A stretch of 32,000 nucleotides of DNA from an uncultured Fibrobacterota bacterium (GCA_903876665.1 CAIRAY010000093.1:5685-37684); one strand, 5' to 3'. Positions 2,950-32,000 are shown, numbered from the stretch's first letter. A program made the numbers and translations. The notes: a model not told the origin generated them from the letters alone.

Positions 2950-2957
2950 GAGAAATT

Positions 2958-8630: not shown

Positions 8631-8763
8631 ACGACAAAGAAAACACAGCCACCCAAAAGGCCTTGGATTTCTTTAATGCGTTTGCCTTGCGAAATTACCC
8701 ATATTCCTATGGACTTTTCTAAGTTGAATCGGTATTTTGTAAGACTTGAATGCCAGAAAAATC

Positions 8764-17043: not shown

Positions 17044-17867
17044 ACCTTCTCCGCATCCGACAACGCCTGGCCAATTGCAGTCCGGACCATAGTCTCGATA
17101 CGATCCAGCACGACTTGGGTACGCAGGTCAACCGTTCCTCCGCCCGTGGATTCAATCCAGCAGCCACCACGGTCCACGCGCTCGTCCGATTCTAGGCGCA
17201 CAGATTTCAAGGAGGTGTTCAAAGGCTGCCAAACGGACTGGGATTCTTCCGCATACTTGACATCCAAAGGGTGCAAATGCAAAACCACGGATTCGGCCTG
17301 CCCCAAATGGGAGAAGGCTTCGTTAAGAACGATCGCAATGCGTTCCGGATGGGTTTCGGCTTCGATGCTGAAAAGTTTTTTGGCGATTCCCAGAGCCAGT
17401 TCCAACGATTCCGACTGAATATTGCGGACCCGTTCTCCGTAGGCGGCGTTGATGTTTTGGATGGATTTCGCAACTTCGGCCTGCAGTGCGGCGACTTGGG
17501 TGGCAAATTCTTTGGTGGCTTTGCTTTCGCCTTCTTTGCGACCGGCCACCAGGCCTTCTTCGCGGGCTTTGACCGCAGCGGATTCAGTCGTGCGCTTGGC
17601 CTCGGCTTTGCTGGCTTCAAGTGTCCGTTTGCTCTCCGAAATTTCCCGTTCCAGAACTTGAATGCGAACCAGGTTTTCGTCTTTGGCTTTCTGGATTTCG
17701 CGCCCGGGAACTTTGAATTCGGGAAGGTCAAAAGAATCCAGAGGAAGCCGTTGCAGATTCTGGGCAGCGGCCCCGCTGCGGACAATGCCTTTGAGCGCCA
17801 CTTTGCCCTCGGACTCCTGGGTAAGAGCCTGGAACATGGAGGATTGCTGGTCTTTCCCTGGAGCCAT
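17040..17867 (-). CDS. fliH: Flagellar assembly protein FliH
   Basis: It sits between fliG and fliI. It has a charged coiled-coil centre (E/K/A-rich) and a FliH-type C-terminal domain (VVLHLHPLD...GGCWIES..G.VDLR). GAGG lies 8 nt upstream of the ATG. Confidence 0.8.
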   Translation of the reverse strand: MAPGKDQQSSMFQALTQESEGKVALKGIVRSGAAAQNLQRLPLDSFDLPEFKVPGREIQKAKDENLVRIQVLEREISESKRTLEASKAEAKRTTESAAVKAREEGLVAGRKEGESKATKEFATQVAALQAEVAKSIQNINAAYGERVRNIQSESLELALGIAKKLFSIEAETHPERIAIVLNEAFSHLGQAESVVLHLHPLDVKYAEESQSVWQPLNTSLKSVRLESDERVDRGGCWIESTGGGTVDLRTQVVLDRIETMVRTAIGQALSDAEKV

Positions 17868-17879
17868 ATAAAGCCTCGC

Positions 17880-18941
17880 TTACACGATCACATCGTCTTC
17901 GCCACCACGACCCGAAATAATGATTTCGTTTTCGGATTCGAGACGACGGACAATGTCCACAATCTTCTGCTGGGCTTCTTCCACTTCGCGCAGGCGCTTG
18001 GGTCCCATGAAGGAGATTTCTTCCTTGATGATTTCCGAAGCGCGCGAGGACATGTTCGTGAAGAACTTGTTCTGCACCTGTTCGTTGGCCCCCTTGAGCG
18101 CAAGCGAAAGCTCCTTGGAATCGACTTCCTTGAGAACTTTCTGGATCGACTTGTCGTCGAGCAGGAGCATATCTTCGAACACGAACATGAGACTCTTGAT
18201 TTCTGTGGCGAGCTCGGGATCGTCCCGTTCGAGGGTTCCCAAAATATTCTTTTCGGCGCTGCGGTCGACCATGTTGAGCATTTCGGCCACGGACTTGACG
18301 CCGCCGACTTCGGCGGTATCGCCCGAGAAGAAGCTCTTCATGACCTGCGAAAGTTGTTGTTCCACCTGGACCAGGACATCCGGTGAAATGGATTCCATGG
18401 TGGCGATGCGCGTGGCGACTTCCACCTGCATTTCGGGGCTTAGCGCCGAAAGGGTTGCAGCGGCTTTGTCCGACTTCATGTGCGCAAGCAAAAGGGCAAC
18501 CGTCTGCGGATGTTCCTTTTGCAAAAATCCGATCAGCTGACTGGTTTCCACATTGTCAAGCATGTTGAAACCCGTGGTGCGAATGGTGCTGGTGACTTTT
18601 TCCAGGATTTCGCGGGCTTTACGAGGACCCATGGATGCTTCCAGAACTTCCTGGGCGTATTCGATTCCACCATGTGTCACGAATTCTTTGGCCATGGAAA
18701 GGCTCTGGAACTCAGTAAGAACATATTCACGCATTTCGGGAGTGACACCCTCGAGGCGGGCGATCTGGGCCGTGAGCATTTCAATTTCGTTTTCGGTCAG
18801 GTTCTTGAAGATGTTGGCACTGGCTTCCGCACCGAGCGCCACCATCAGAATGGCGGCCTTCTTGGGTCCGGGAATGTCGAACATGGGGGCACCGGGAGCT
18901 GCTCCCGAATCACCACCGCCCTTATAGAATTGTTTGGCCAT
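17880..18941 (-). CDS. fliG: Flagellar motor switch protein FliG
   Basis: Typical FliG sequence (KAAILMVALG.E.SA.IFK.L...EIE.L..., EVD.KEL..ALKGA....), a length of 353 aa, and operon position. Confidence 0.9.
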   Translation of the reverse strand: MAKQFYKGGGDSGAAPGAPMFDIPGPKKAAILMVALGAEASANIFKNLTENEIEMLTAQIARLEGVTPEMREYVLTEFQSLSMAKEFVTHGGIEYAQEVLEASMGPRKAREILEKVTSTIRTTGFNMLDNVETSQLIGFLQKEHPQTVALLLAHMKSDKAAATLSALSPEMQVEVATRIATMESISPDVLVQVEQQLSQVMKSFFSGDTAEVGGVKSVAEMLNMVDRSAEKNILGTLERDDPELATEIKSLMFVFEDMLLLDDKSIQKVLKEVDSKELSLALKGANEQVQNKFFTNMSSRASEIIKEEISFMGPKRLREVEEAQQKIVDIVRRLESENEIIISGRGGEDDVIV

Positions 18942-18944
18942 CTA

Positions 18945-20489
18945 CTATTTACCACTCTTGGCAGGTTTCTTTTCTTCACCCTGGGCTAGCCAGGAGCGTA
19001 GCAATTCCGCGACGACCAGAGGATTGGAAACGGTGTAATCCTCTAGCTTTTGCAGAAGCTCGTTATGGCGCTTGACCCGCTCGGGAACTTCCTGCTTTTC
19101 ATCTTCCAGGTTGATTCCGGCAAATTTGGGCACGGGCGGATTCATGGCTTCGATCATGCCCACCGCGACCTTGCGCAGGAACACGAAGGCCAGCAAAAGA
19201 ATCAGGACAATAGTTCCACGTAATGCCCAGGTTTCGTAGACTTCGCGTTGCTCCATTCCTTCCAAAGCCTGCATTTCGTCTTCCACGTCGGAGCGGTCAA
19301 ACTGCACGGAAGCAACGAAGACGTCGTCGTTGCGCTCGGTGGAGAAGCCAACCGCATTACGCACAAGCTGGTTTAGAACTTGAATTTCATCGGGGGAGCG
19401 TGGCTTGAAAATCTTTTTGCCATCGGAACCCTTTTCGTAGGAGCCATCGACGGCCACGGACACAGTGAGGCGTTTGGTGGTGCCTGGACTCGAGACAATT
19501 TGCGACATGGTCCGGTTGATTTCGTAGTTGGTTATCGAGCCTTCCTTGGTCTCGTTGCCCACGATTGGGCTGTTGGTCTTGCTGCCGTCGTCGCGTTGTT
19601 CGGAGCGCACGACTTTTTTGGAAGGATCGTAGGTTTCGACGGTTTTGTTGATCTGGTCGAAGTCGAGTTCGGCACTAACTTTGACGCGGGATTTATTGGG
19701 ACCGACTACGCCGTCCAGAATCATCATGATCTGGGCTTCCATGTTGGCTTCGACGCCACGCTTGAGTTCCTGGTTGTGATCGGTGGCTTCGGCAACCACA
19801 TTGTCGGCAAAGCCACGGGTGAGCATGCTTCCATGATCGTCAAGAATGGTGACTTGGCGGGCACGCAAGCCTTCTACCGCGCTGGCCACCAGGTGCTGGA
19901 TTCCTTTGATCTGGCGTTCCTTAAGGTCTTGGCCGGGACGTAATTTCAATATTACCGAAGCGGTCGCTTCCTCTTTCTTTTCCATGAAGATGGTTTGTTT
20001 GGGAATGCTGATATGCACGCGGGCACCCTCGATTTCGCGAAAGGTTTCGATGGAGCGCATGAGTTCGGTTTCGACCGCACGCCGGTAATTGAGGTTCTGG
20101 GTAAAGTCGGTCATGCCCAATTGGCTTTTGTCGAACAACTCGTAGCCCTTGCCTTGTTCCCGTGGAAGGCCTGCGCGTGCAAGGTTCATGCGAATTTCAT
20201 GAATCGATTCCTTGGCTACGAGAATGGATCGGCCATCGTTGTCGAGCTCATACTCGAACTTGCCTTCCTTGAGGAATCCGGTGATTTCGGCAGCATCGCT
20301 GAGTTCCAGGTTTGCAAACAAAGTGGCTTTGCCAGAATCGCCTCCGCCAAACCCTTGAATGGAAATCACCACGACCAGCGCAATGAAGGTAATGCCAAGG
20401 ACCGCAACGATCAATCCCTTCTGCAAAGGATTGAAACGAACCCAAATATCGCGGAACTGTGTGAGTAGTTGTTTAAAAAATTCTGACAT
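18945..20489 (-). CDS. fliF: Flagellar M-ring protein FliF
   Basis: An N-terminal TM (LIVAVLGITFIALVVVI), the YscJ/FliF periplasmic domains, a second TM near aa 440, and operon position. Confidence 0.9.
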   Translation of the reverse strand: MSEFFKQLLTQFRDIWVRFNPLQKGLIVAVLGITFIALVVVISIQGFGGGDSGKATLFANLELSDAAEITGFLKEGKFEYELDNDGRSILVAKESIHEIRMNLARAGLPREQGKGYELFDKSQLGMTDFTQNLNYRRAVETELMRSIETFREIEGARVHISIPKQTIFMEKKEEATASVILKLRPGQDLKERQIKGIQHLVASAVEGLRARQVTILDDHGSMLTRGFADNVVAEATDHNQELKRGVEANMEAQIMMILDGVVGPNKSRVKVSAELDFDQINKTVETYDPSKKVVRSEQRDDGSKTNSPIVGNETKEGSITNYEINRTMSQIVSSPGTTKRLTVSVAVDGSYEKGSDGKKIFKPRSPDEIQVLNQLVRNAVGFSTERNDDVFVASVQFDRSDVEDEMQALEGMEQREVYETWALRGTIVLILLLAFVFLRKVAVGMIEAMNPPVPKFAGINLEDEKQEVPERVKRHNELLQKLEDYTVSNPLVVAELLRSWLAQGEEKKPAKSGK

Positions 20490-20599
20490 AAGTTTCGACT
20501 CTCCGCATTAAGATAGTCACATTTGCGATGAAATGCCATATCTTGTTTAAAATCAACAAGTTAAGAGTAGCGAAATTTGTGCCGAAAGAAGGGAGGTAC

Positions 20600-20804
20600 A
20601 AGTGGAAAGTGAACAGCCCGGGTTGCGGATCGGTTGGCTAGTGGAATACACAGGGGTGTATAAGTTCCCGTATTCCGCCTGGGCGGAACGGTCACTATTA
20701 AGTGGAAAATTGCGAAATGTATTCTCTTTCAGGGAAATTTGCCCGCAATTTTCCGTTTTCCACTAGGGTGTCGTGCAGAGAATCTGGCTGTTCACTTTCC
20801 ACTT
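20600..20804. repeat. Nested perfect inverted repeats (205-bp palindromic element) in the fliE-fliF spacer
   Basis: Outer arms 20600-20618 and 20786-20804 pair over 19/19 bp. Middle arms 20638-20646 and 20758-20766 pair over 9/9 bp and share the same centre. An internal hairpin, 20704-20714/20744-20754, pairs over 11/11 bp. Small hairpins lie at 20646-20661 and 20673-20688. The AGTGGAA core occurs 5 times. Confidence 0.85.
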
Positions 20805-20808
20805 CTCC

Positions 20809-21117
20809 TTAGCTTCTCATCCGGATCAATTCGCTGTAGGCATCCATGGTTTTGTTGCGGATTTCGAGCATCAGGTTGAAGGCGACCTTGGCTTCTTCTA
20901 CGGCGAGCATGACCTGGTGGACGTCCTTGACTTCGCCGGCGACCATCTTCTGGATCGAAGTGTCAGCGGTCTTTTGCATTTGATTGACATCGGTCATGAA
21001 ACCCTTGAGCATGTCGTCGAATTTGGGAGCGCCCGCTTTCCCGGGAGAGGATATCTTGGGATCAAGCTCCGTGGGTCCTTGGGGAATTAGGCCTTTAATC
21101 ATTTCTAGTTCATTCAT
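20809..21117 (-). CDS. fliE: Flagellar hook-basal body complex protein FliE
   Basis: FDDMLKGFMTDVNQMQ....MVAGEV.DVHQVMLA.EEAKVAFNLMLEIRNK...AY.E..RM is a classic FliE sequence. A GAGGA RBS lies upstream. Confidence 0.85.
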   Translation of the reverse strand: MNELEMIKGLIPQGPTELDPKISSPGKAGAPKFDDMLKGFMTDVNQMQKTADTSIQKMVAGEVKDVHQVMLAVEEAKVAFNLMLEIRNKTMDAYSELIRMRS

Positions 21118-21133
21118 ATTCTTATCCTCGAAC

Positions 21134-21448
21134 TTAGGCGCGCATGTCGATCAAATTTCCGATTTTTCGGATGGGCATGCCGGTAGCGGCTTGGGCCCGT
21201 AGGGATTCCGCCCGGGACTGGTAGTCTCCTTGGGCAAACTTGGGTGCCATCGTTTGACTGGCCACGGCTTTGGCGGGGGCGGTCTGCTGCTGGGGTGCAA
21301 TTCCCATTTCCCGGCGTTTGGATTCAAGCAGAGCCTGCCAATCCGAAACCTGGGTAGACTTGGCTGGAGCGGCAGCCGCAGGTGTCTGCATCCGGGCTTG
21401 GGCGCTTTCGCGAAGTTTCATGAATTGTTGCAGTGCGACGGGATCCAT
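21134..21448 (-). CDS. Hypothetical Ala/Gln-rich protein (104 aa) inserted between flgC and fliE
   Basis: The ORF fills the gap exactly: its ATG is 1 nt after the flgC stop and its stop is 16 nt before the fliE ATG. It is on the same strand as the operon. No family was recognised and the sequence is low-complexity. Confidence 0.55.
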   Translation of the reverse strand: MDPVALQQFMKLRESAQARMQTPAAAAPAKSTQVSDWQALLESKRREMGIAPQQQTAPAKAVASQTMAPKFAQGDYQSRAESLRAQAATGMPIRKIGNLIDMRA

Positions 21449-21449
21449 A

Positions 21450-21962
21450 TTAGAGCTCCAGTGCCTTGGTGAGCATGGCTTTGGTGGAGTTGAATGCGGT
21501 CACATTGGCTTCATAAGCGCGGGACGCTGTGATCATGTCAACCATTTCTTCAATCACATTTACATTGGGCATGGCCACATAACCTTTTTCGTCGGCGTCG
21601 GGGTGGCTGGGGTCGTAGACCATGCGCAGGGGCGCGTCATCCTTCACGATTCCGGCAACCTTGACGCCCGAGCCAATGTTTTCCTGGGCTAGAGGCCACT
21701 CGGGCTGGGGAATGTTCATGTGTCCGTTCTGGGTTTTGCGTCCACCGATTTTATCTTGTTCCTTCACCAGGAACTGGTCAAATTCAACTGGATCCGCTTC
21801 GAGCTGGACTCGTTGACGGCGGTAAGGGCCACCTTCGGCGGTGCGGGTAGTTTCGGCATTGGCCAGGTTCGAAGAGATGACGTTCTGGCGAATGCGCTGA
21901 GCCCGTAAGCCCGAGGCGCTGATGTCTAAACCGGTAAAAAATCCAACAAGAGGCATAATCAT
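21450..21962 (-). CDS. flgC: Flagellar basal-body rod protein FlgC
   Basis: LDISASGLRAQRIRQNVISSNLANAETTRT and the C-terminal block ...ITASRAYEANV.A....K.M. The start is probably the second ATG at 21956, which has AAGGA 6 nt upstream. Confidence 0.9.
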   Translation of the reverse strand: MIMPLVGFFTGLDISASGLRAQRIRQNVISSNLANAETTRTAEGGPYRRQRVQLEADPVEFDQFLVKEQDKIGGRKTQNGHMNIPQPEWPLAQENIGSGVKVAGIVKDDAPLRMVYDPSHPDADEKGYVAMPNVNVIEEMVDMITASRAYEANVTAFNSTKAMLTKALEL

Positions 21963-21972
21963 TCCTTAGGTC

Positions 21973-22440
21973 TTAAGTGACCTTTCCCGCAGAAGTAATT
22001 TTTTCCAACTGACTGCGAATAAAGCGCGCATCAAAGCTATATGCGAGCTGGTTTTCAGCCAGTTTGGACATTTCCATATCAATATCGACATTGTTCACTT
22101 CGCCCGGCTTGGTGGGGTCTTCGGGACGGTAGGCAAAAGGCTTGAGCATATCCAATTCAGGTCGTCCTAAACGGATGTGGTTGGGATCGGTACGGTCGCC
22201 GGCCACTTGTTTCTTATCGAGAGCCTTGCGAAGCTGTTCTTCAAAATTGACTTCGATGCGCTGGAACCCAGGGGTAGTCACATTGGCCAAATTATCGGCA
22301 ATTGCCTTACCACGCAGAGTACCAGCGTCCAGCCCTTTGGCGGCTACCGGGATGCTCGTGTGGTCGAATATGGTCAGTTTTGCAAGCATAGACAGTCCTT
22401 CTAAAGACTGCTTTGCGAATTCCATGCCATAAGGGTTCAT
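21973..22440 (-). CDS. flgB: Flagellar basal-body rod protein FlgB
   Basis: LRGKAIADNLANVTTPGFQR matches the rod-protein N-terminal motif. The tracked start is a GTG at 22449. ATG 22440 is preceded by GAGGGAG. An alternative ATG at 22389, preceded by GAAGGA, gives a more typical 139 aa. Confidence 0.85.
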   Translation of the reverse strand: MNPYGMEFAKQSLEGLSMLAKLTIFDHTSIPVAAKGLDAGTLRGKAIADNLANVTTPGFQRIEVNFEEQLRKALDKKQVAGDRTDPNHIRLGRPELDMLKPFAYRPEDPTKPGEVNNVDIDMEMSKLAENQLAYSFDARFIRSQLEKITSAGKVT

Positions 22441-22512
22441 CTGCGTCACTCCCTCGCAAACGTTGGTCTAGTGCACTGTTTCGCATGAGCGACCCGCCTT
22501 CCTAGGGCCACG

Positions 22513-22582
22513 GGCAAAATTTGCTCCCGGTCACCCGGCAAAACCTGCCTAGCAGGCAAAACTTGCCGTGGCAATAACTTCC
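22513..22582. promoter_or_regulatory. Array of GGCA-N5-TGCC palindromes upstream of flgB
   Basis: The copies are ggcaaaatttgc (22513-22524), ggcaaaacctgc(c) (22537-22548), ggcaaaacttgc(c) (22555-22566) and a degenerate ggcaataacttcc (22570-22582). Confidence 0.35.
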
Positions 22583-22592
22583 CCTATTCAGA

Positions 22593-22619
22593 GTATCGGC
22601 ACCTGGGTCGAAAATCTTA
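22593..22619 (-). promoter_or_regulatory. Sigma-28 (FliA)-type promoter facing flgB
   Basis: The minus strand reads TAAGATTT-N11-GCCGATAC, against the textbook consensus TAAAGTTT-N11-GCCGATAA. The -35 element matches 6/8, the -10 element 7/8, and the spacing is exact. It lies about 150 nt upstream of the flgB ATG at 22440. Confidence 0.5.
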
Positions 22620-22651
22620 ACGAGGTTTTTTCATTTGGCTAACTTTGCGAG

Positions 22652-22912
22652 ATGCAAAAGAGCAAAAAGACCCAATCCGCAATTCTGGTGGCCAAAAACC
22701 TGTTTTCGGACCGCCTTCAGAAATATTTGGAGGAGGAGCATGGGGTCAGCATCGGAAAATTCGAGGCGGAAGAAATATTTGAAGAATCCTTCAAGACCAT
22801 TGCGCCCATCCTGTACAACCAGGCCCTTCTAGATGCCAAGGAGTTCTTTCAGGAGCGCTTCGCGGACTTGTCTGAAGATGTAATCCAGCTTGAGATATCC
22901 GCGGAGAAGTGA
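22652..22912 (+). CDS. DUF2164-like small protein
   Basis: IAPILYNQALLDAKEFFQERFADLSEDV matches the remembered DUF2164 core (IGP.vYNQav.DA..y.qer..DL). The protein is 86 aa. Confidence 0.7.
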   Translation: MQKSKKTQSAILVAKNLFSDRLQKYLEEEHGVSIGKFEAEEIFEESFKTIAPILYNQALLDAKEFFQERFADLSEDVIQLEISAEK

Positions 22913-22918
22913 TATAAT
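22890..22918 (+). promoter_or_regulatory. Sigma-70-like promoter for the LOG-family gene
   Basis: TTGAGA (22890-22895), a 17-nt spacer, then TATAAT (22913-22918). It lies 45 nt upstream of ATG 22964 and overlaps the 3' end of the DUF2164-like gene. Confidence 0.45.
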
Positions 22919-22963
22919 CTATGTTAAACTCAAGTACACTTGAGAAACTAGAGGATATTCACC

Positions 22964-23812
22964 ATGCATGAACCGATGACATCGTCGCCTCTCCTGGCCC
23001 ACGAAAATAAAGAATTTCTGAACTCGGCCCAAGGGCGGCAGGTCCGCATCCTTTCCGAATTCATCGCTCCCGATGTGAATTTCGAACGGGCCAAAGTCTA
23101 CCATACCATGGTGTTCTTCGGTTCGGCACGTATTCTGCCCCATGATGTGTTGAATGAAATGCGTGCATCGCTCAACCCCATGCGTGCCGAAGACGCACCC
23201 AAGCTTGCTCGTCTAGCTAAACTCGAGCCACTTTGTCGCTACTACGAGGACTCGAGGGAACTAGCCCGCAGGCTTAGTGTCTGGGGCAAGGCGCGCCCGG
23301 AGCGCTATTCCGTCTGTACCGGGGGTGGTCCAGGCATTATGGAAGCCGGCAATCGTGGTGCCTTCGATGCCAAGAGTCCCAACATCGGGCTCAACATCCA
23401 ACTCCCTTTTGAACAACACCCCAATCCGTATATCAGTCCCGAGCTGAATTTCCAATTCCGCTACTTCTTCATCCGCAAATTCTGGTTCCTCTTCAAGGCG
23501 CGCTGCCTGGTCGGATTCCCTGGCGGCTGGGGCACCCTGGACGAGCTCTTTGAAACCCTGACCCTCATGCAGACCGGCAAAATCGACAAGATGCCCGTCC
23601 TCATTTTCGGGACCGAGTATTGGAAGAGACTAATCAACTGGGAGCAGCTGATTGAAACGGGCATGATTGACGAAGCCGACATGAAGCTGTTCCATTTCAG
23701 CGACTCGGTGGACGATGCCTTCCAATGGCTGATTACCGAAATGGAGCGTATTGCGCCCACGGTGGAAGGGCGCAACGAAGTGTTGGGCCACTCCTTTGGG
23801 AGCATTCAGTAA
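22964..23812 (+). CDS. LOG-family / TIGR00730-type Rossmann protein (nucleotide 5'-monophosphate nucleosidase-like)
   Basis: GGGPGIMEAGNRGA and the signature GFPGGWGTLDELFE (PGGxGTxxE). Confidence 0.8.
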   Translation: MHEPMTSSPLLAHENKEFLNSAQGRQVRILSEFIAPDVNFERAKVYHTMVFFGSARILPHDVLNEMRASLNPMRAEDAPKLARLAKLEPLCRYYEDSRELARRLSVWGKARPERYSVCTGGGPGIMEAGNRGAFDAKSPNIGLNIQLPFEQHPNPYISPELNFQFRYFFIRKFWFLFKARCLVGFPGGWGTLDELFETLTLMQTGKIDKMPVLIFGTEYWKRLINWEQLIETGMIDEADMKLFHFSDSVDDAFQWLITEMERIAPTVEGRNEVLGHSFGSIQ

Positions 23813-23852
23813 CCCATGAGGGGATTTTTTGCTTAGAACCTTACTGTCTGAA

Positions 23853-24935
23853 ATGTTTGATCGTTTTTCCCGTAGGTTGACCCTCCGGGAACATTGCTCC
23901 CAAATGGAATACCAATATTGGATTGATCGCAATCCAACCTTTCTGCAACACGATTCCATCGAACGCATCAAGCTTGGCCGCAGGCTCAACATGGTCGGCA
24001 CCAACGATGTGTTTTTGGCCAGCAACTGGATCGAGCGGACTACCGGCGAGGCCCGCACTCCATCGCGCGAAATCGTGGTCAAAATCTGCAAGTACTGGGC
24101 TCCTGCGGGCAAAGGCCGCCATCATCGCCTCAATATGATTCTTGCGGCTTTCCAAGACGAAATCCGCATTAACAACCTGGTGCGCGCCACCAACATCGAA
24201 GGCGTAGTGCAGAGCTTTGGCGGGGGCCAGGCTGGTCGTTACCCCTTCCTCAAAATGGAATACATCAAGGGCGTTCCTCTCGACAAAACCTTCCGCACCG
24301 ACATCGATGAGACCGAGCTGATTGGGCGCATGGCCAAGCTTGCGTACCTAGCCAACAGCATTAGCCAGCTCCATTACTATGAAGTGGTGCACAAGGATCT
24401 CAAACCCAAAAATCTTTTGCTGAGTCAAGACGAAGCGCACCACAATAACCATAAGATTCTGATCTGCGACTTTGGTTTCGCCCAGGCCAAGATCCGCGAA
24501 AGCGTGACGGAATACGGTGGCCAGATGAGCCCTGGCTATTCCGCTCCAGAGCAGGCGGTTCAAGGCGGAGAAACATTGGGTGCCATGGTGGATTATTTCT
24601 CTTTTGGCGTCATTATGCATGAGTATTTGACTGGCTACAACTTGTTTCCTCAGTCCATGCAAATATTTCTTGAGGATAATTATCGCATTACGGATCGTTA
24701 CCTGAACCACTTGCGCGATGGTCGCGTGAACCGCTTTGCCCATCCCAAATGGGGTGCCGAAATTTGTGGGTGGATTAATGCCCTCACGACTTATGATTCC
24801 AATGACCGTCGTCAAAAGTGCCCCGACCTGTTCCATATTGCGCACCGCTTGCGTGAGCTGGTGAACGAGACCGGATTCCGCGATATCAATACGGACTTTT
24901 TGTGGAATCAATTGAAGGAATACGGCAAGGCTTAA
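23853..24935 (+). CDS. Soluble Hanks-type (ePK-fold) kinase, non-RD
   Basis: Catalytic loop VHKDLKPKNLLL, DFGFAQ, SAPEQ, and VVKICK (candidate VAIK-type lysine). The Gly-rich loop is degenerate. There is no TM segment or signal peptide. The tracked start at 23829 is a TTG; the first ATG is at 23853. Confidence 0.8.
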   Translation: MFDRFSRRLTLREHCSQMEYQYWIDRNPTFLQHDSIERIKLGRRLNMVGTNDVFLASNWIERTTGEARTPSREIVVKICKYWAPAGKGRHHRLNMILAAFQDEIRINNLVRATNIEGVVQSFGGGQAGRYPFLKMEYIKGVPLDKTFRTDIDETELIGRMAKLAYLANSISQLHYYEVVHKDLKPKNLLLSQDEAHHNNHKILICDFGFAQAKIRESVTEYGGQMSPGYSAPEQAVQGGETLGAMVDYFSFGVIMHEYLTGYNLFPQSMQIFLEDNYRITDRYLNHLRDGRVNRFAHPKWGAEICGWINALTTYDSNDRRQKCPDLFHIAHRLRELVNETGFRDINTDFLWNQLKEYGKA

Positions 24936-24976
24936 GGTTTCCGTATTATTCAATCATTCTGTCATAAAGGCTTTTC

Positions 24977-25708
24977 ATGTTTAAAAATTTCCCCAAGCAA
25001 AGGCCACCACTCCCTGCGGCGATTCAGGCGATTTATTCTAGCCAGTACAAATCCAACCGCAATGGCAGCACCACTGCGGCTTCCTTGGCGCAGCGCATGG
25101 AAGAATGGCTTCACCGCAAGGTGGCCAGCGATGTCGGCTCTCCAAATGATGCATACAAAGTTACACTCGAACTCGGTGCTGGAACTCTCAACCAGTTAAA
25201 GTACGAACCGAATTTGATTACCTATGACATCGTAGAGCCGTTTAGGGATCTGTTCCGTGATTCCCCAAGCCTCAGTCGGATTCGAAACGTATTTGCTGAC
25301 ATTTCCGAAATCCCCTGTAGCCCCGGTTACGACCGTATCACATCCGTGGCGGTTCTGGAACATGTATGTAACCTGCCCGAAGTTATTGCGAAAGCCGGAC
25401 TCCTGTTGAACCCAAACGGCGTATTTCGAGCAAGCATCCCCAATGAAGGGACGTTTCTATGGACTCTAGGCTGGAAATTGACCACAGGGCTAGAGTTCAA
25501 GCTGAAGCACGGACTGGATTACGGGATATTGATGAAGCATGAACATGTCAATACGGCCGATGAAATTGAACAGGTATTGAAGCATTTTTTTAAAGATGTT
25601 TCTTGTAAGGTATTTGGGGTGTGCAAGGGTATCGCGTTGTATCGCTACTTCGAGTGCAAAAACCCACAGCTAGGTCTCTGCAATGAATTCCCTTCGTCAT
25701 CGCGATAA
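24977..25708 (+). CDS. Class I SAM-dependent methyltransferase
   Basis: Motif I is LELGAGT. The acidic post-I residue and the VAVLEHV block are typical of type 11/12 methyltransferases. Confidence 0.75.
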   Translation: MFKNFPKQRPPLPAAIQAIYSSQYKSNRNGSTTAASLAQRMEEWLHRKVASDVGSPNDAYKVTLELGAGTLNQLKYEPNLITYDIVEPFRDLFRDSPSLSRIRNVFADISEIPCSPGYDRITSVAVLEHVCNLPEVIAKAGLLLNPNGVFRASIPNEGTFLWTLGWKLTTGLEFKLKHGLDYGILMKHEHVNTADEIEQVLKHFFKDVSCKVFGVCKGIALYRYFECKNPQLGLCNEFPSSSR

Positions 25709-26123
25709 ACTGGTGCGTTACCTATTCGTCGGAGGCTCCGCAGCGGTAGTCGATTTTGTGGTGTTTGTTGTGGTTTTGCATCTCCTGACCATGGTCAACT
25801 TTGCGACGAGTGGGACTTCCCCTTTTTATCCGGAGCAACTGGCAAATGCCGCTTCGCTTCTCTGCGGCTTCCTTTTCAGTTTTTTCCTGCATCGCTTTTG
25901 GTCTTTTCGGTCCACAGGAAACCCGTATCCCCAGCTGGCCAAAACGATCCTGCTGGTGATCATCAACACCGCAGTCAGTAGCGCTCTGATTTCCGTCCTC
26001 GCTCGCGACTTTGGCTTGAACATCAAAATTGCAAAGCTGATTTTGCAAGGGCTTGTTGCTTCTTGGAATTATCTAATTTTCAATTACCTGATTTACAATT
26101 CAAGAAAACGATGCAGTCCATGA
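25683..26123 (+). CDS. GtrA-family small membrane protein (putative polyprenyl-phosphate-sugar flippase component)
   Basis: LVRYLFVGGSAAVVDFVVF matches the GtrA N-terminal signature. The protein has 4 TM segments in 146 aa. It overlaps the methyltransferase 3' end by 26 nt and the GT2 start. Confidence 0.75.
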   Translation: MNSLRHRDKLVRYLFVGGSAAVVDFVVFVVVLHLLTMVNFATSGTSPFYPEQLANAASLLCGFLFSFFLHRFWSFRSTGNPYPQLAKTILLVIINTAVSSALISVLARDFGLNIKIAKLILQGLVASWNYLIFNYLIYNSRKRCSP

Positions 26124-27082
26124 ATCAATTGCTTTCTGTAGTTATCCCTGTCTATAACGAAGGCGAGGGAATCGCCCACGCCATTCAACAAATCAGCAAA
26201 ACCCTGGTTCAAGCAAATATTCCTCACGAATTTGTCCTGGTGGACGATGGATCCCGGGATCACTCCTGGGATGAATTGTTAAAGCTTGCCAAGGGCAGTG
26301 ACAATATTCTCTCGGTAAAGTTGAGTCGGAATTTTGGAAAAGAAGCGGCTCTCTGTGCTGGCCTCGATCATGCCAAGGGGGCCTGTTGCCTTTGTATGGA
26401 CTCCGATTTGCAGCACCCCCCCGAAATCATCCCCGAAATGTACCGGCTTTGGAAGGATGATGGCGTTGAGGTGGTCGAAGGAATCAAGAAGCATCGGGGT
26501 CGCGAATCCATTTCATACAAACTAAGCGCAAAGATATTTTATCAGCTTCTCAAAAAGACATCTGGAATCAACCTTGAAAACGCCTCGGATTTCCGCCTGC
26601 TCGACCGTGTGGCTGTAGAGGCTTGGAAGTCCCTCCCCGAACGGTCCACCTTTTTTCGGGGAATGTCCACATGGATTGGATTTTCCCGGGCCCAGGTAAG
26701 TTTTGTCGTCGCTCCGCGTGAAAATGGATCCACCAAGTGGTCATTCTTTCGACTTGCGCGCCTAGGTCTCAGCGCCATCACCTCTTTCTCTGCCGCCCCC
26801 CTTTACCTCTCCGCAACCATAGGCTGCGCGTTCCTGTTTCTTTTTGTTCTCCTTTTGGGATGGACTTTGTACATGAAATTCATGGGAATTGCTGCAGACG
26901 GATTCACCACGGTAATTTCCCTCCAACTCATTGTCGGAGGGTTGTTATTGTTAAGTGTTGGGGTCATTGGCATTTATCTGGAAAAAATTTACGAGGAAGT
27001 GAAAGGGCGTCCGCGTTATTTGATTCACCGCGTTGTAGCTCGAAATCCAACTTCATCCAACTCCATCGTCCGTGAGGGATAA
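26111..27082 (+). CDS. GT2 polyprenyl-phosphate hexosyltransferase (GtrB/ArnC/DPM1-like)
   Basis: LSVVIPVYNE, VLVDDGSRD, MDSDLQHPPE (DxD), and two C-terminal TM helices. The start is ATG 26111 or 26120; the tracked 26063 start would overlap GtrA extensively. Confidence 0.85.
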   Translation: MQSMNQLLSVVIPVYNEGEGIAHAIQQISKTLVQANIPHEFVLVDDGSRDHSWDELLKLAKGSDNILSVKLSRNFGKEAALCAGLDHAKGACCLCMDSDLQHPPEIIPEMYRLWKDDGVEVVEGIKKHRGRESISYKLSAKIFYQLLKKTSGINLENASDFRLLDRVAVEAWKSLPERSTFFRGMSTWIGFSRAQVSFVVAPRENGSTKWSFFRLARLGLSAITSFSAAPLYLSATIGCAFLFLFVLLLGWTLYMKFMGIAADGFTTVISLQLIVGGLLLLSVGVIGIYLEKIYEEVKGRPRYLIHRVVARNPTSSNSIVREG

Positions 27083-27088
27083 TTCAAA

Positions 27089-28846
27089 ATGGAACTGTTT
27101 AATCTTTTCTCTTTTTGTTTCGTTGCACTGCTGATTTTTCTTGCAGTTGCAATTCGCTTTGCTTTGACTCCTGCGCAATTGGAGAAATGGGCGCTACCCC
27201 AAGGGAGTCGCACCCAGCGGGCGATTCAATGGGTTAGTTCGATGGCTAGGCCCGAGGGGGCGCATCCTCGCCTGTATTGGGTCTTATTTACCGTTGCCAT
27301 TCTTGTCGCTACCGGGCTACGGGTTTACCAATTCGGAGGTGTGCCTGCTGGATTCAATCAAGATGGCGCCATGGCCGCGGTGGATGCCAAGGCACTTTCG
27401 GACTACGGGACTGATCGCTTTGGCATGAAATTCCCCGTTCAATTTACCGCATGGGGCTATGGCCAGATGAGCGTGTTGCTCTCCTATGCCATGGTTCCGT
27501 TCATAAAGGTCTTTGGCCTTACTGCGATCACCGCCCGGCTGCCCATGCTGTTTGCCAGTTTACTTGGATTAGTTGCGTTGTTTTTTCTGATCAAGGATTT
27601 GGCTGGACGGCGTGCGGCTTTGGTTTTGTTGTTTTTTGCGGCCATTAACCCTTGGCATATTATGCAAAGTCGTTGGGCCCTGGATTGCAATATGTTTCCT
27701 CACATGCTCCTCATCGGTCTGTTTTTACTGAATCGGATGAATCGGAGCCCTGGGTATTTATATGCATCCATGATTTTCTTTGCGCTATGCATGTACAGCT
27801 ATGGCATCGCCTTTGTAACCATTCCACTTTTTCTGCTTGCGACGCTCGTTCTTCTTCTTTTCAAGCGAATGGCGTCCTGGAGGCAGCTATTGATTGCCAG
27901 TGCAGTATACATTGGACTCTCCTGGCCCGTTTGGCTCGTCATGGTGATTAACACGTTAAAGCTTTCAACTGTTCAGACGCCCTTCTTCACTGCGGCATTT
28001 TTTGAAAACAGCGTCCGTTCCAAAGACCTGCTATTTTTTGCCGATGATTTTTGGAGTCAGCTGTTAATCAATGTTCAGTCGCTTTTGAATGTGGTCTTTT
28101 TGCAACGCCCTGATCTTCCCTGGAATGCCCTGGATAACTACGGAACGATCTATCTCTGTTCCATGCCCTTTGTTTGGGTGGGCTTGTTGTGGTCCATAAA
28201 AGAAATCATGACCTCTGCAAACAAGCAAAAACAATTCGCCTATTCGATTCTGATGTTCGGATTCCTTACTGGCATTTGGGCCGGATTAGTGGTTGCATCT
28301 GTGAATGTGAACCGAATCAACATCATTTTCTATGTGATGATCATTCTGGGGGGCTTGGGCATTTACCAAACCATACGTTGGTTCCGTTGCAGCAAATATT
28401 TGATCGCGGTCCTTTATGCCATTTTATTGGTTCAGTTCTCCTCGCACTATTTTGGAGATTACGCAGACCAAATTGGGGAATACTATTTCGAAGATTTTGG
28501 AAAGGCATTGAACTATGTCGAAGATAAGCCCTTTGAATCCATCTATGTTACCGTGAACAGCCAGTACGAGGGATCAAAAAATGTCAGTGAAATTTTGACT
28601 CTGTTCCATCATGGAATCGATGCGCAATATTTTCAGGGCGTTACCAACCAAGTGGAGGGGAAAACCCTTCGACCATACTCCGAAAAATATCGGTACGCAT
28701 CCATGCGTGATCTGGTCATTAATCCTTCCGAGCAGGCGGTGTATGTGGTAAATAGCAATGAGGTCCAATACTTCGATCCCGCCGTTTTCCACATCGAACA
28801 GTTTCCAAGATTCAGCGCAGTCATTCCCCGAAACATGCAGAACTAA
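27089..28846 (+). CDS. GT39/ArnT-PMT-like GT-C membrane glycosyltransferase
   Basis: The first periplasmic loop GGVPAGFNQDGAMAAVDAKALSDYGTDRFGMKFPV.F.AWGYG resembles the family-39 loop (..DEa..gYnAysl..tG.D..G...Pl.f..fg). The protein has more than 10 TM segments followed by a C-terminal soluble ~130 aa. Confidence 0.75.
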   Translation: MELFNLFSFCFVALLIFLAVAIRFALTPAQLEKWALPQGSRTQRAIQWVSSMARPEGAHPRLYWVLFTVAILVATGLRVYQFGGVPAGFNQDGAMAAVDAKALSDYGTDRFGMKFPVQFTAWGYGQMSVLLSYAMVPFIKVFGLTAITARLPMLFASLLGLVALFFLIKDLAGRRAALVLLFFAAINPWHIMQSRWALDCNMFPHMLLIGLFLLNRMNRSPGYLYASMIFFALCMYSYGIAFVTIPLFLLATLVLLLFKRMASWRQLLIASAVYIGLSWPVWLVMVINTLKLSTVQTPFFTAAFFENSVRSKDLLFFADDFWSQLLINVQSLLNVVFLQRPDLPWNALDNYGTIYLCSMPFVWVGLLWSIKEIMTSANKQKQFAYSILMFGFLTGIWAGLVVASVNVNRINIIFYVMIILGGLGIYQTIRWFRCSKYLIAVLYAILLVQFSSHYFGDYADQIGEYYFEDFGKALNYVEDKPFESIYVTVNSQYEGSKNVSEILTLFHHGIDAQYFQGVTNQVEGKTLRPYSEKYRYASMRDLVINPSEQAVYVVNSNEVQYFDPAVFHIEQFPRFSAVIPRNMQN

Positions 28847-28860
28847 GGGTTCGCTAGGCT

Positions 28861-31044
28861 CTATTCTTGTGCCTGGAATTGAGGCTCAAGCCAGTCAGCG
28901 TGGTCATAATTTATGGATCCGAGGCCATCGATCACCAGCGCTAACTTGCCTTCACCCTGTAATGGAATCCGGGTAAACCCGGTAGGTGATCCATGGCGAA
29001 TGGTGTCGCTTTTCCAGGCCTGCACGCCGTCCAGTTCGATGCGGAATTGCACTTCACCACCCGGAGATTCATCGTCAATTCCAAAATTCACCGCGAAAGA
29101 TTTTGCCGTGTCGGGTATGCTGAATTCCATGCGAGAATTAGCATGCGCACCCCAGCCCAGGTCCCACATTTTTCCGTTGACCGAGAGAGGATTTCCATCG
29201 ACCGAAGAGTTCATTGCGGGTTGTTTGTAATCCTGCGAAGAAAGGGTTGGATTCCTTAAGCTTGAATCCAGTTTTCGGACTGTTTTGTCGAGGATGATCA
29301 CGGGCTGCAGCCAGTCGGCATGATCATAGGAGTCGGGTCCCAGGGTTCTCGTTTCTAGGGTGAGGATTCTTCCGTGTGCGACAGAAACCATGGCGAGCTG
29401 GTATTCTTCCCCGCCATTCGCGGGTTCGCTCGTCCACTTTTGCACGCCATCGACCCAAATGATAAATTCAACTTTTCCCTGCTTGGCCTCGTCGTCAATG
29501 CCTATCATTACATACAAACTATCAGAATTCATGGGCAGAGGAAATGAGAAGGAAGAGGGTGCGTGGGTTCCGATGCCATCTTTAAACACTCTCCCATTTA
29601 CCTGAAGAGGCTGATTGTCATAGGAACGGTTGATATTGAACTTCCTAGATTCCGGTTGCATATTCAAGGGAGGAATCGAAGTCAGCAACAGTTGGTTTTC
29701 GCCCAAGTTAAGCTCGAAAGATGGGGGAGGAATGGCCTGATAAATAAGCATGCCGCTCAGAGAAAGAATCAGAATCCCTTCTGGAAGCCATATTGGAGCA
29801 GGAAGAGCTACAAATGCCTGGCGAATCCGGCGCAAAAATCCGCCCCCCAGCACTTCTTTTCCGACCATTAGAAAAAAGACAACGACTCCGAAAAGGGATA
29901 ATGGCATCCAAAGCCACTCACCATTGAGTCCATTGACCTGAGCGATATTCAGTGCGCATACCAGGGTAATCACCAAAAAAAGGAAACCCCGCCGAATGTC
30001 CGTTGCCCAAGCGAGAACAACGAAAGGAACTGCGGGGAGAAGGTACCGCTCATGCATGCCTGGCAAGAGAATGAAAAAGGCGAATAAAATCAGAGCCGAC
30101 CATTTCCATGCTTGACGGGGCTTACGCACTCTCCAAGATTTCCAAAAAGTAAAAAGCGAGAACAGCGAAAACGCCACCATCCCAAGTCCCTTGGGGGTTA
30201 GGATGAATTGCCAGGTTTCGGTGGCTTCCTTTGTTCCTTGAAATAGCAATTGGTTGTCAGGGGCTACATTGCCTACAAGGGACATCCAGATATTGGCGGC
30301 ATTGTAGGTCGCATAAGGGTACATGGATGTATTATTTAGATATGCCTTGTCTATTAGGCCGGAAACCGAATCGAAAAGAATCCAGGGCAGAACAATTAAG
30401 GCGCCAACCGCTATGCCAATCGGCAACGCTCGGAGCAACCATCTCCAGCGATATAGCGCTAACCCTGCATACACGGGTAAAATGGCAATCATCTGGAATT
30501 TGCATAATAGGGCAAGAACAAGAAATGCGGGGCTCCAGAGAGTCAGGGCGGAACGCCGGGCTAGGCCTGCAATCGCTAAAACAGCAAATACTGCCGGGAC
30601 GATATCGACCTGGCCCCATACCGGGCCATCCAGCAATAATGCGGGATTCAGTGCGCAAAGACCCAAAATCCAGCCTTGCCGTTCCTGAGTCCAGGGGCGA
30701 CGTTTCACCTCGCTCCAGACCAGTCGCAAAAGGATCAGATGGGAAAAGAATACTGGCCAAAGAACCAGAAATTTGAGGGTGTAATCCTTGGCGAGCGGCA
30801 TCCCGGTCCAAGAATATATCTTTCCCACAACCCAGAGCCATTCTACATAGAACGGTGGGTAATTCCCTGAGAATCCCTGAAATCCAAAGTCTTTTAAATA
30901 GGTGACCCAGCCAAACCAATACCCCTGGTCTCCGTCATAGGGGGAGGCCAGAGTGCAAACCAAGTTGGCAATTATGGCCAGGATGGCATAGAAGACAAAA
31001 GGTCGGTTGTCTTTGGATTGCATAGGGTTCCCGAGAGGTTTCAT
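28861..31044 (-). CDS. GT-C glycosyltransferase (ALG6/ALG8-like motifs) fused to two C-terminal NPCBM carbohydrate-binding domains
   Basis: The membrane domain is aa 1-438 (nt 29731-31044), with GNYPPFYVEWLW (compare eukaryotic ALG8 LDYPPFFAWFE) and PGMHERYLLP (compare VHEKAILL). NPCBM-like repeat 1 is about aa 455-585 (nt 29290-29682) and repeat 2 is about aa 597-722 (nt 28879-29256). Each repeat has G.G(T/A)HA.S...F, F....GIDDE, G.V.F.I..DGVQ.W.S and the terminal YDHADWL. Confidence 0.75.
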   Translation of the reverse strand: MKPLGNPMQSKDNRPFVFYAILAIIANLVCTLASPYDGDQGYWFGWVTYLKDFGFQGFSGNYPPFYVEWLWVVGKIYSWTGMPLAKDYTLKFLVLWPVFFSHLILLRLVWSEVKRRPWTQERQGWILGLCALNPALLLDGPVWGQVDIVPAVFAVLAIAGLARRSALTLWSPAFLVLALLCKFQMIAILPVYAGLALYRWRWLLRALPIGIAVGALIVLPWILFDSVSGLIDKAYLNNTSMYPYATYNAANIWMSLVGNVAPDNQLLFQGTKEATETWQFILTPKGLGMVAFSLFSLFTFWKSWRVRKPRQAWKWSALILFAFFILLPGMHERYLLPAVPFVVLAWATDIRRGFLFLVITLVCALNIAQVNGLNGEWLWMPLSLFGVVVFFLMVGKEVLGGGFLRRIRQAFVALPAPIWLPEGILILSLSGMLIYQAIPPPSFELNLGENQLLLTSIPPLNMQPESRKFNINRSYDNQPLQVNGRVFKDGIGTHAPSSFSFPLPMNSDSLYVMIGIDDEAKQGKVEFIIWVDGVQKWTSEPANGGEEYQLAMVSVAHGRILTLETRTLGPDSYDHADWLQPVIILDKTVRKLDSSLRNPTLSSQDYKQPAMNSSVDGNPLSVNGKMWDLGWGAHANSRMEFSIPDTAKSFAVNFGIDDESPGGEVQFRIELDGVQAWKSDTIRHGSPTGFTRIPLQGEGKLALVIDGLGSINYDHADWLEPQFQAQE

Positions 31045-31103
31045 TAAATGGGTGGCAAAATATACAATCTACCCCAAAAGGTATGTTGGCATTTCCTTCC
31101 TAG

Positions 31104-31955
31104 TCACCGCAATGCCAAGGCACAGCTCACCAAAATAACCATTCCACCTAGCAAACTCACCGGAGGCAAAGCCTCGTGCATGAAAAACATGGCGACAAAA
31201 GCGTTGAGAACTGGCGAGAGCAATCCCAAGGTGGAGGCGCTGGAAACATTCAAAAACCGGTAGCCTTGAGTCATCAGCATTTGGCCAGCCGTTCCCAAAA
31301 GTCCTACCGCACCCAAATACCCCCACTCCAACATTCCGTAGGAAGAAATTGGATAATAGATGACAAAAGGGAACATACAAATGACTCCCGACAAACTAAA
31401 GACCAGGAAAATGGAAGGGGTGTTGTCCGTGCGGTGCAATTTCCCAATGGCGGTGACCGCGAACCCTGCTGCCACGGCCCCTAGCAATCCCGCCGCTTCC
31501 CAAATGCCAAAATCCGTTCCAGCCCCTTGGGCTAGTTTTGGTTGCAAAAGCAGTCCCAGACCCACTACTGCAAAGGCCAATGCCATCCAGCGGAAGCGGC
31601 TCATGCGTTGGTCCAGAATGAACACCGCAAATATGGTGGCAAATATGGGGTAGCTATACTGCAAAAAGGAACTGACTCCGATTCCAATTTTATAGATGGT
31701 CCAGAAGTACAAAGCTGTAGCAATGACTCCAATTCCGCCCCGCGCAAGCAACCAAGGCACGTTGTTGAAGCGCACCTGAAAAACTCCCGCCCGCATTAAG
31801 ATTAAGACCAACAGGGCTCCGGTCAAAAAACGAGTAAAGGCCAAATGCCAAGGATTAACGGTCTGAGCCAGGCGGATGACAATGGCCATTCCGCTGAAGG
31901 CCACCGCCGATCCGAAGATCAGGGCCAGGCCTCGCCATTTATTTTCGGATGTCAT
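31104..31955 (-). CDS. DMT-superfamily (EamA-like) transporter
   Basis: 283 aa with about 10 TM segments arranged as two EamA-like halves (ALIFGSAVAFSGMAIVIRLA...). It lies 59 nt upstream of, and co-directional with, the GT-C::NPCBM gene. Confidence 0.8.
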   Translation of the reverse strand: MTSENKWRGLALIFGSAVAFSGMAIVIRLAQTVNPWHLAFTRFLTGALLVLILMRAGVFQVRFNNVPWLLARGGIGVIATALYFWTIYKIGIGVSSFLQYSYPIFATIFAVFILDQRMSRFRWMALAFAVVGLGLLLQPKLAQGAGTDFGIWEAAGLLGAVAAGFAVTAIGKLHRTDNTPSIFLVFSLSGVICMFPFVIYYPISSYGMLEWGYLGAVGLLGTAGQMLMTQGYRFLNVSSASTLGLLSPVLNAFVAMFFMHEALPPVSLLGGMVILVSCALALR

Positions 31956-32000
31956 TTTCCAAACATGCCAGTCCGGGCGCGCTGTTCCAGGAACAGGTCC

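Follow-up and report, generated by a model that had tools for sequence, protein, structure and literature searches.

The window analyzed here, a 32,000-nucleotide (nt) stretch of DNA from an uncultured Fibrobacterota bacterium (GCA_903876665.1, CAIRAY010000093.1:5685-37684), contains a cassette of five genes that probably encode one multi-component system for transmembrane glycosylation, not two. The products are a methyltransferase (MT), a GtrA-family protein, a GtrB/ArnC-type glycosyltransferase of family GT2, a PMT_2-type putative GT-C enzyme and a second GT-C-like protein that is fused to two CBM51 (NPCBM) carbohydrate-binding modules. An earlier note on this DNA had divided the genes between two converging modules; in relatives, the GT-C genes are adjacent and share a strand, and only one GtrA and one GT2 precede them. 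The evidence consists of family and fold assignments, predicted topology, gene linkage and conservation. Assignments were made with Pfam, NCBIfam and PDB sequence searches, and 42 kb in total were covered by including 10 kb past the right end of the window (contigs L009 and L010, same organism). The cassette is composed as follows.

24977-25708, + strand: probable class-I S-adenosylmethionine (SAM)-dependent MT, 243 amino acids (aa), first cassette gene; Methyltransf_23, 7e-6, 26.3 bits against a cutoff of 27
25683-26123, + strand: GtrA-family small membrane protein, 146 aa, candidate flippase for a lipid-linked sugar; PF04138, 1.7e-16
26120-27082, + strand: GtrB/ArnC-type GT2, putative polyprenyl-phosphate glycosyltransferase, 320 aa; PF00535, 5.6e-27, with PDB matches to GtrB and ArnC
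27089-28846, + strand: PMT_2/ArnT-type putative GT-C, 585 aa, with a soluble C-terminal domain of ~140 aa; PMT_2, 7e-4, 20.3 bits against 26.1
28861-31044, - strand: GT-C::2xCBM51/NPCBM fusion protein, 727 aa; two NPCBM domains (PF08305), 7e-53
29725-31044, - strand: membrane domain of the 727-aa protein, residues 1-440, 13 predicted transmembrane helices; predicted GT-C fold, ALG6 top match
29290-29655, - strand: CBM51/NPCBM module 1, ~residues 464-585 of the 727-aa protein, predicted periplasmic; Pfam NPCBM, PDB and Foldseek
28876-29247, - strand: CBM51/NPCBM module 2, ~residues 600-723 of the 727-aa protein, predicted periplasmic; Pfam NPCBM, PDB and Foldseek

All eight open reading frames (ORFs) named in the earlier note were recovered at its coordinates, and the tight spacing that it described on the + strand is real: the MT gene runs 26 nt into GtrA, GtrA shares 4 nt with GT2, and 6 nt separate GT2 from the gene for the 585-aa protein. 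The 4-nt overlap is counted from the ATG at 26120, which is the start chosen by gene callers, while the longest ORF of GT2 begins at a TTG at 26063. The stop codons of the convergent 585-aa and 727-aa genes lie 14 nt apart.

Conservation and linkage of the cassette

The five-gene set of MT, GtrA, GT2 and both GT-Cs recurs at 42-68% identity on an unrelated contig (L004) and is therefore not a chance juxtaposition. Within its 17 kb this contig carries, on one strand, GtrA, a flavoprotein resembling UDP-galactopyranose mutase (UGM-like), GT2 (66%), PMT_2::NPCBM (45%), GT-C::NPCBM (42%) and another PMT_2-like protein; beside this run are a GtrA (49%) and an MT (68%) in the order MT-GtrA. The GT-C genes are likewise collinear in Cellvibrio sp. 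NN19 (L046), where the locus comprises GtrA, GT2, GT-C::NPCBM, PMT_2::NPCBM and PMT_2. A Fibrobacter locus comprises GtrA, a UGM-like gene, PMT_2 and GT-C::NPCBM, and the locus L001 combines PMT_2::NPCBM, a UGM-like gene, GtrA, GT-C::2xNPCBM, bacterial GLF and PAP2. The position of the GT-C genes behind a single GtrA-GT2 on L004 and in Cellvibrio agrees with the suggestion, already made in the earlier note, that two GT-Cs probably share one donor synthase. The convergence of the GT-C genes in the window is a local rearrangement of an operon that is collinear elsewhere.

A more intimate association of GT-C enzymes is found in Deefgea rivuli (JHVM01000013.1), where a 1280-aa protein (L005, 459-4301) joins a CBM4_9 domain, an ALG6/GT87-like domain (29% identity, 2e-17, with YPP, WGQVD and MHERY motifs), an F5/8-type-C (galactose-binding-like) domain and a complete PMT/PMT_4TMC. 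This fusion unites two GT-C enzymes, each of a different class, in a single polypeptide, and its gene is adjoined by GT2-GtrA-GtrA-GT2-GT39.

The 727-aa family was found in 80 genome loci distributed among Fibrobacter/Fibrobacteraceae, Cellvibrio/Cellvibrionaceae/Saccharophagus, Rhodocyclaceae, Colwellia, Chromatiales and Edaphocola, and its best relatives in genome collections are only 42% identical to the protein of the window. Linkage was counted at the 51 GT-C::NPCBM genome loci for which 6 kb or more was available on each side, a partner being scored when it lay within 6 kb of the GT-C::NPCBM gene. A second PMT_2-type GT-C was present at 34 of the 51 loci, GtrA at 30/51, a GtrB-like GT2 at 18/51 and a UGM-like gene at 10/51, and at least one of these four partners was found at 43/51.

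The UGM-like flavoprotein of ~520 aa (L004 6806-8380, L017 6618-8219, L007 3667-5232, L001 7966-9450) belongs to GtrA/GT-C cassettes of Fibrobacter, a Firmicute metagenome-assembled genome and two metagenome contigs, and among solved structures it comes nearest to eukaryote-type UDP-galactopyranose mutases (8.9e-19 to 5e-17). A lipid-linked furanose donor is a possibility in the lineages that carry this gene, with no direct bearing on the window; neither a UGM-like nor a GLF gene occurs within the 42 kb around the cassette. A literature search returned no report of a lipid-linked galactofuranose donor and nothing relevant on Fibrobacter glycosylation.

The two large membrane proteins

Residues 1-438 of the 727-aa protein have no Pfam match, even at E<=10. 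A Foldseek search with the full-length protein was swamped by CBM51 matches, including the tandem CBM51 structures 7js4 and 2ygl, and residues 1-440 were then modelled alone. The AlphaFold2 model of this membrane domain (pLDDT 87.8, pTM 0.88) matched, in order, ALG6 (6e-5, TM-score 0.63/0.58), ArnT, PIG-U, STT3, Pmt4, ALG3 and EmbA/B in the PDB, the last at E of ~0.1-0.3; every one of these top matches is a GT-C enzyme or a GT-C-like subunit. A profile of the membrane domain collected 5346 clusters (50% identity) at E<=1e-3, 2915 at E<=1e-10 and 231 at E<=1e-30. Pfam models recognized among 35 remote relatives were GT87 (17/35, best E 3.5e-19), Alg6_Alg8 (13/35), ALG3 (4/35) and PIG-U (2/35), and the JGI label for the family is 'Gpi18-like mannosyltransferase'. 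The description of the NPCBM fusion as ALG6/8-like in the earlier note is thus supported by the top structural match to ALG6 and by the Alg6_Alg8 and GT87 matches of remote relatives. The Alg6_Alg8 model itself does not match the 727-aa protein, which is connected to GT57 by fold likeness and transitive links only, and there is no direct match to the GT87 model (PF09594), whose superfamily, not family, the protein shares. The membrane domain belongs to the ALG6/GT87-type branch of GT-C enzymes and is a member of no named family.

The predicted topology of 13 helices, N-in/C-out, agrees with the positive-inside rule at all cytoplasmic loops and would place both CBM51 modules in the periplasm. 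The invariant residues of the family (D39, Y62-P-P, W143-G-Q-x-D147, K182-F-Q and H331-E-R-Y) all map to the predicted periplasmic face, D39 lying in the first periplasmic loop. The model accordingly has the form expected of a GT-C enzyme, polytopic with a catalytic loop outside the cytoplasm; for the 585-aa protein this can be said only through its PMT_2-annotated homologues.

Assignment of the C-terminal modules to CBM51/NPCBM follows from two copies of PF08305 together with matches to solved CBM51 structures. Module 1 matches the CBM of GH110 alpha-1,3-galactosidase B (3.9e-10), and module 2, for which the best Pfam NPCBM stretch is residues 600-723, matches the CBM51 of a Clostridium perfringens GH95 enzyme (2vmg/2vmh, galactose complex; 2e-6, with a Foldseek TM-score of 0.80 and a root-mean-square deviation of 2.0). 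Most relatives, those of Fibrobacter and Cellvibrio, have a single NPCBM module, as compared with two in the 727-aa protein. Because solved CBM51 modules bind galactose or blood-group-type glycans, our best guess for the acceptor held by the pair is, by analogy, a galactose-containing envelope glycan. A literature search on NPCBM together with GT-C found no papers.

The 585-aa protein has more than 1200 homologues, and the 120 best of them, at 44-56% identity, derive from Firmicutes, Beta- and Gammaproteobacteria and metagenome bins. Nearly all of these 120 carry a precomputed PF13231 (PMT_2) assignment and are annotated as ArnT-family or GT39 by their sources. The first-loop motif G-x-N-Q-D92-G is invariant in the family alignment, and a C-terminal NPCBM is present in some orthologues (P0122, P0210, P0227). 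The protein matches PMT_2 only, and neither the PMT core (PF02366) of GT39 nor PMT_4TMC or MIR; it matches no ArnT (GT83) structure in the PDB and no NCBIfam model, and no arnA, arnB or arnD gene is nearby. Both large membrane proteins nonetheless look like GT-C enzymes, as had been proposed, and profile searches assigned neither of them to a non-glycosyltransferase family. Homology between the 585-aa and 727-aa families is not claimed: the 99% probability reported by hhalign is an artefact of NPCBM columns in both alignments. Profile-profile comparison of the membrane domains alone gave 31% probability at E 5e-4, and at this level the two domains are not detectably related.

Putative donor synthesis, flipping and methylation

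The GT2 aligns over its full length (residues 5-303) with Synechocystis GtrB (sll0501, 5ekp; 1.9e-64), over its whole length with ArnC (8e-42), and also with DPMS (5e-15). In NCBIfam it matches PgfS (4e-69) and ArnC (1.5e-48), both under the equivalog cutoffs. Two C-terminal hydrophobic helices are predicted to span the membrane. Homology thus points to a membrane-anchored GT2 making a polyprenyl-phosphate sugar, with relatives that produce undecaprenyl-phosphate-glucose or undecaprenyl-phosphate-4-deoxy-4-formamido-L-arabinose (Ara4FN). The GtrA gene overlaps both of its neighbors, so that a small candidate flippase is encoded together with the putative synthase. The three-component logic of GtrB-type synthase, GtrA and GT-C recognized in the earlier note therefore holds.

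Homologues of the MT (L092 and L098-L177) are conserved to an unusual degree, with 65-77% identity in Thiolapillus, Betaproteobacteria, Ca. Thioglobus, Chitinophagales, Deltaproteobacteria and Acidobacteriota, and the MT has no sequence relative in the PDB. In 22 longer metagenome loci the MT usually abuts a protein of 430-730 aa with 8-15 hydrophobic segments, and many of these loci also have a GtrB-like GT2 and a GtrA-sized protein. When ten such polytopic neighbors were scanned, three matched GtrII (one of them above the Pfam cutoff), one YfhO (sub-threshold) and one DUF7657, and five had no Pfam match. The MT looks like a general accessory of polytopic/GT-C-like modules.

Proposed mechanism

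On this basis, the GtrB/ArnC-type GT2 would transfer a sugar from a nucleotide sugar to polyprenyl phosphate at the cytoplasmic face, and GtrA would help carry the polyprenyl-phosphate sugar to the periplasmic face. There, two unrelated GT-Cs, one ArnT/PMT_2-like and the other of the unnamed ALG6/GT87-like family, would use the same donor, and would probably make two different linkages on the acceptor glycan. The tandem CBM51 of the 727-aa enzyme may hold this acceptor, most likely a galactose-containing envelope glycan; such a role is proposed because the CBMs of GT136 ORF12, EmbC and AftD bind acceptor glycans (PMC11127046). The MT, as a conserved accessory, presumably methylates the sugar before export, either on the nucleotide sugar or on the lipid-linked sugar; being cytoplasmic, it could act only before export.

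Each catalytic step, the nature of both donor sugar and acceptor, and the part played by the MT are what we infer from the observations above. Several points weigh against the single system. The MT assignment is weak (26.3 bits) and its substrate a guess, and the PMT_2 score of the 585-aa protein itself is sub-threshold (20.3 vs 26.1 bits), with no PDB sequence match either from the single sequence or from a 25-sequence family profile; because no solved structure was matched by sequence, its GT-C status rests on family annotation and synteny. Galactose specificity of the CBM51 modules would be an extrapolation from distant members, at 16-26% identity. Many Fibrobacter orthologues of the 727-aa gene have no GT2 nearby and some are solitary, so the linkage is frequent and not obligatory. 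Other GT2 or flippase genes are possible elsewhere in the genome. Finally, the convergent GT-C genes of the window cannot form one transcript, and the 727-aa gene could be transcribed with the genes to its right, an EamA gene and the chorismate synthase gene aroC. A promoter and terminator scan of 22400-32000 gave counts not above those of shuffled sequence and is uninformative on the operon structure of the - strand.

Alternative explanations

Three further genes flank the cassette.

22964-23812, + strand: LOG/'lysine decarboxylase'-family protein with an N-terminal extension of ~110 aa, upstream of the kinase
23829-24935, + strand: Hanks-type kinase; Pkinase PF00069, 3e-23
31104-31955, - strand: two-repeat EamA protein, 283 aa; PF00892, 5.6e-30

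These neighbors are the basis of the two-module interpretation of the earlier note, in which the EamA protein, of the drug/metabolite transporter (DMT) superfamily, would be an ArnE/F-like flippase serving the ALG6-like GT-C::NPCBM and the kinase would take part as well. EamA does share its strand with the GT-C::NPCBM gene and lies 59 nt upstream of it, ArnE and ArnF do belong to the DMT superfamily, and the kinase gene is only 41 nt upstream of the MT gene. Among ~90 related loci, however, EamA, the kinase and LOG adjoin none outside contigs L009 and L010 of the organism itself, and the GT-C::NPCBM gene of relatives directly follows GtrA-GT2. The EamA protein is moreover of the two-repeat TIGR00950 type (carboxylate/amino-acid/amine transporter, its best NCBIfam match), not the small subunit of four transmembrane helices typical of ArnE/F, and its start is overlapped by 4 nt by aroC (L009, 9096-10241), which suggests that aroC and EamA form one transcription unit; most simply, EamA is a metabolite transporter that travels with aroC. 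The kinase matches generic Ser/Thr (Hanks-type) kinases only. Two separate modules are therefore very improbable. Because the set recurs without EamA, the kinase and LOG, the conserved unit consists of the MT, GtrA, GT2 and two GT-Cs; of the six or seven genes for which the earlier note raised the question of conservation these five do recur together, while EamA and the kinase do not, and the latter two, with LOG, are neighbors and not parts of the cassette. A LOG-family gene (31% identity) also occurs ~4 kb from the Deefgea cassette, which is probably a coincidence. A WbdD-type kinase/MT chain terminator was likewise considered and rejected, since the kinase has only these generic matches and is absent beside MT homologues, and the MT has no PDB relative.

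Two other explanations concern the acceptor. In the first, the PMT_2-type enzyme, with or without the second GT-C, would O-glycosylate Ser/Thr-rich exported proteins such as linker-containing glycoside hydrolases secreted by the type IX secretion system (T9SS), and the CBM51 modules would recognize the first sugar for extension; we give this proposal a small chance. In NCBIfam the GT2 comes closest to PgfS, which is the synthase of a pathway for protein glycosylation in streptococci, but this match is far under the equivalog cutoff (233 vs 500 bits). PMT_2 belongs to the clan of protein O-mannosyltransferases, and the Deefgea fusion contains true PMT and PMT_4TMC domains, yet the 585-aa protein has no PMT, PMT_4TMC or MIR domain. 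The concentration of the 727-aa family in the plant-fibre degraders Fibrobacter, Cellvibrio and Saccharophagus, and the presence of SprA (T9SS) and a GH10 xylanase nearby, would fit secreted enzymes as targets; the cassette encodes no candidate acceptor protein, however, and where acceptor binding by GT-C-fused CBMs has been demonstrated to date, the acceptors were polysaccharides (PMC11127046). The other explanation is that a gtrABC-type system of the ordinary kind adds a side-branch modification to an O-antigen or lipopolysaccharide-like polysaccharide whose biosynthesis locus lies elsewhere in the genome. The three-component logic is identical, GtrII-type proteins are among the MT neighbors elsewhere, and in Thiolapillus brandeum (L092, AP012273.1, 1456249-1473007) the MT, an 809-aa membrane protein, GT2 and GtrA follow, in this order, immediately upon the genes of a Wzm/Wzt-type ABC transporter and that of a large multi-domain glycosyltransferase. 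The absence of a recognizable O-antigen or lipid-A locus, as reported in the earlier note, holds here; the MT-GT2-GtrA sub-module of Thiolapillus does adjoin an ABC-transporter polysaccharide locus. Against a gtrABC-type modification, O-antigen, capsule and lipid-A genes are absent from the window, from the 10 kb past its right end and from the Fibrobacter, Cellvibrio and Deefgea loci inspected, and the number of GT-Cs in each cassette, two to three of different classes that are often accompanied by CBMs and a mutase-like enzyme, suggests that one glycan receives several linkages and not a single side-branch. This explanation, which shares a glycan acceptor with the single system proposed here and so overlaps it, appears unlikely.

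Comparison with known systems

The pathway logic of Gtr, Arn and CsbB-YfhO multi-component systems is known, and precedents exist both for shared components and for CBM-bearing GT-Cs. In Gram-positives, several synthase/GT-C pairs have the flippase CflA in common and the synthase GttA is used for two acceptor polymers (PMC8035078), and GT-Cs with a C-terminal acceptor-binding CBM include GT136 ORF12 of Citrobacter youngae O1/O2 and Emb/AftD (PMC11127046). The statement of the earlier note that the locus matches no known layout was in this respect too strong. The novelty lies in the combination, in which a GT-C family without a name is fused to CBM51 and paired with a PMT_2-type GT-C behind one synthase, together with a conserved MT and a concentration in fibre degraders.

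The cassette resembles GtrA-GtrB-GtrC of Shigella and Salmonella, CsbB-GtcA-YfhO and lactococcal Csd/CflA in its membrane-anchored GtrB-type GT2, GtrA-family protein and polytopic GT-Cs predicted to act outside. Unlike in those systems, its GT-Cs are not of the GtrC, GtrII or YfhO types, one of them being of the unnamed ALG6/GT87-like family with two CBM51; it is headed by a conserved MT, no acceptor-polymer locus is nearby, and its relatives have up to three GT-Cs and the UGM-like flavoprotein. With GT136 ORF12, EmbA/B/C and AftD it shares a GT-C that has a C-terminal, predicted periplasmic CBM, and the donor in those systems is a polyprenyl-phosphate sugar; in mycobacteria, as proposed here, several GT-Cs draw on one lipid donor. 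For GT136, however, a UbiA-type synthase makes the donor from phosphoribosyl pyrophosphate and the flippase is a MATE protein, and the donor of Emb/Aft is decaprenyl-phosphate-arabinose, whereas the cassette has a GtrB-type GT2 and GtrA as candidate flippase. Its CBM, a tandem CBM51/NPCBM, also differs from that of ORF12/Emb, and the 727-aa protein resembles ORF12 and Emb in fold but not in sequence.

The 727-aa protein shares its predicted fold and an acidic residue in the first loop with ALG6/ALG8 (GT57) and PimE-type GT87 enzymes, but it matches neither Pfam model and is ~15% identical to ALG6. It is bacterial, fused to CBM51 and has 13 predicted transmembrane helices with a periplasmic C-terminal extension, while ALG6 has 14 transmembrane helices. 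Likeness to ArnC-ArnE/F-ArnT lies in the ArnC match of the GT2 and the ArnT-family annotation of 585-aa homologues. Unlike the Arn pathway, the cassette has no ArnA, ArnB or ArnD genes and its neighboring EamA is not of the ArnE/F type; the 585-aa family has no ArnT sequence match, even by profile, and the GT2 is nearer to GtrB than to ArnC.

Other content of the window

Elsewhere the window encodes a Glu_synthase-domain protein, an NrpR-like regulator, a GH77 enzyme, KsgA, a 2298-aa SprA-like T9SS protein, flagellar genes, a DUF2164 protein and the LOG-family protein. The SprA-like protein (8746-15642, +; SprA_N 1.4e-20, T9SS translocon) adjoins a flagellar block (15733-22449, -) with fliI, fliH, fliG, fliF, fliE and an flgC-type rod gene; genes for a type IX secretion system and for flagella are thus present in the same organism, which points to a flagellated lineage within the FCB group. 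The NrpR-type regulator (2853-3962, +; NRD1_2 1.8e-75 with HTH_12) is divergent from the Glu_synthase-domain protein (1090-2793, -); NrpR is best known as an archaeal nitrogen repressor. Beyond aroC lie unrelated genes, including those for a CBM4_9-GH10 xylanase and a SAM hydroxide adenosyltransferase-family protein. Three ORFs (24348-24953, -; 30231-30776, +; 30332-30919, -) are antisense to or out of frame with the kinase or the 727-aa gene; they lack support from gene callers on identical contigs and most probably do not represent real genes.

Significance

Three-component glycosylation systems shape the surface chemistry of many bacteria, and with it antigenicity, phage receptors and resistance. 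To these systems the cassette adds a GT-C family that has no Pfam model and, at E<=1e-10, numbers 2915 clusters; CBM51 modules fused to biosynthetic rather than degradative enzymes; and an MT that is well conserved from phylum to phylum and accompanies several types of GT-C module. Its carriers Fibrobacter, Cellvibrio and Saccharophagus are major plant-fibre degraders whose envelope glycans are poorly known, and Cellvibrio japonicus among them is genetically tractable. A more speculative proposal, to which we attach a low probability, is that an envelope glycan is built or decorated entirely from modified lipid-linked sugars: the MT would methylate polyprenyl-phosphate-hexose, or its nucleotide precursor, before the GtrA flip, the UGM-like enzyme of relatives would supply a furanose for a donor of the polyprenyl-phosphate-galactofuranose type, two to three CBM51-tethered GT-Cs would assemble the polymer outside the cytoplasm, and the 727-aa membrane domain would found a new CAZy GT family. 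If true, this would be an undescribed lipid-linked-sugar route that resembles mycobacterial arabinan synthesis, but in Gram-negative fibre degraders.

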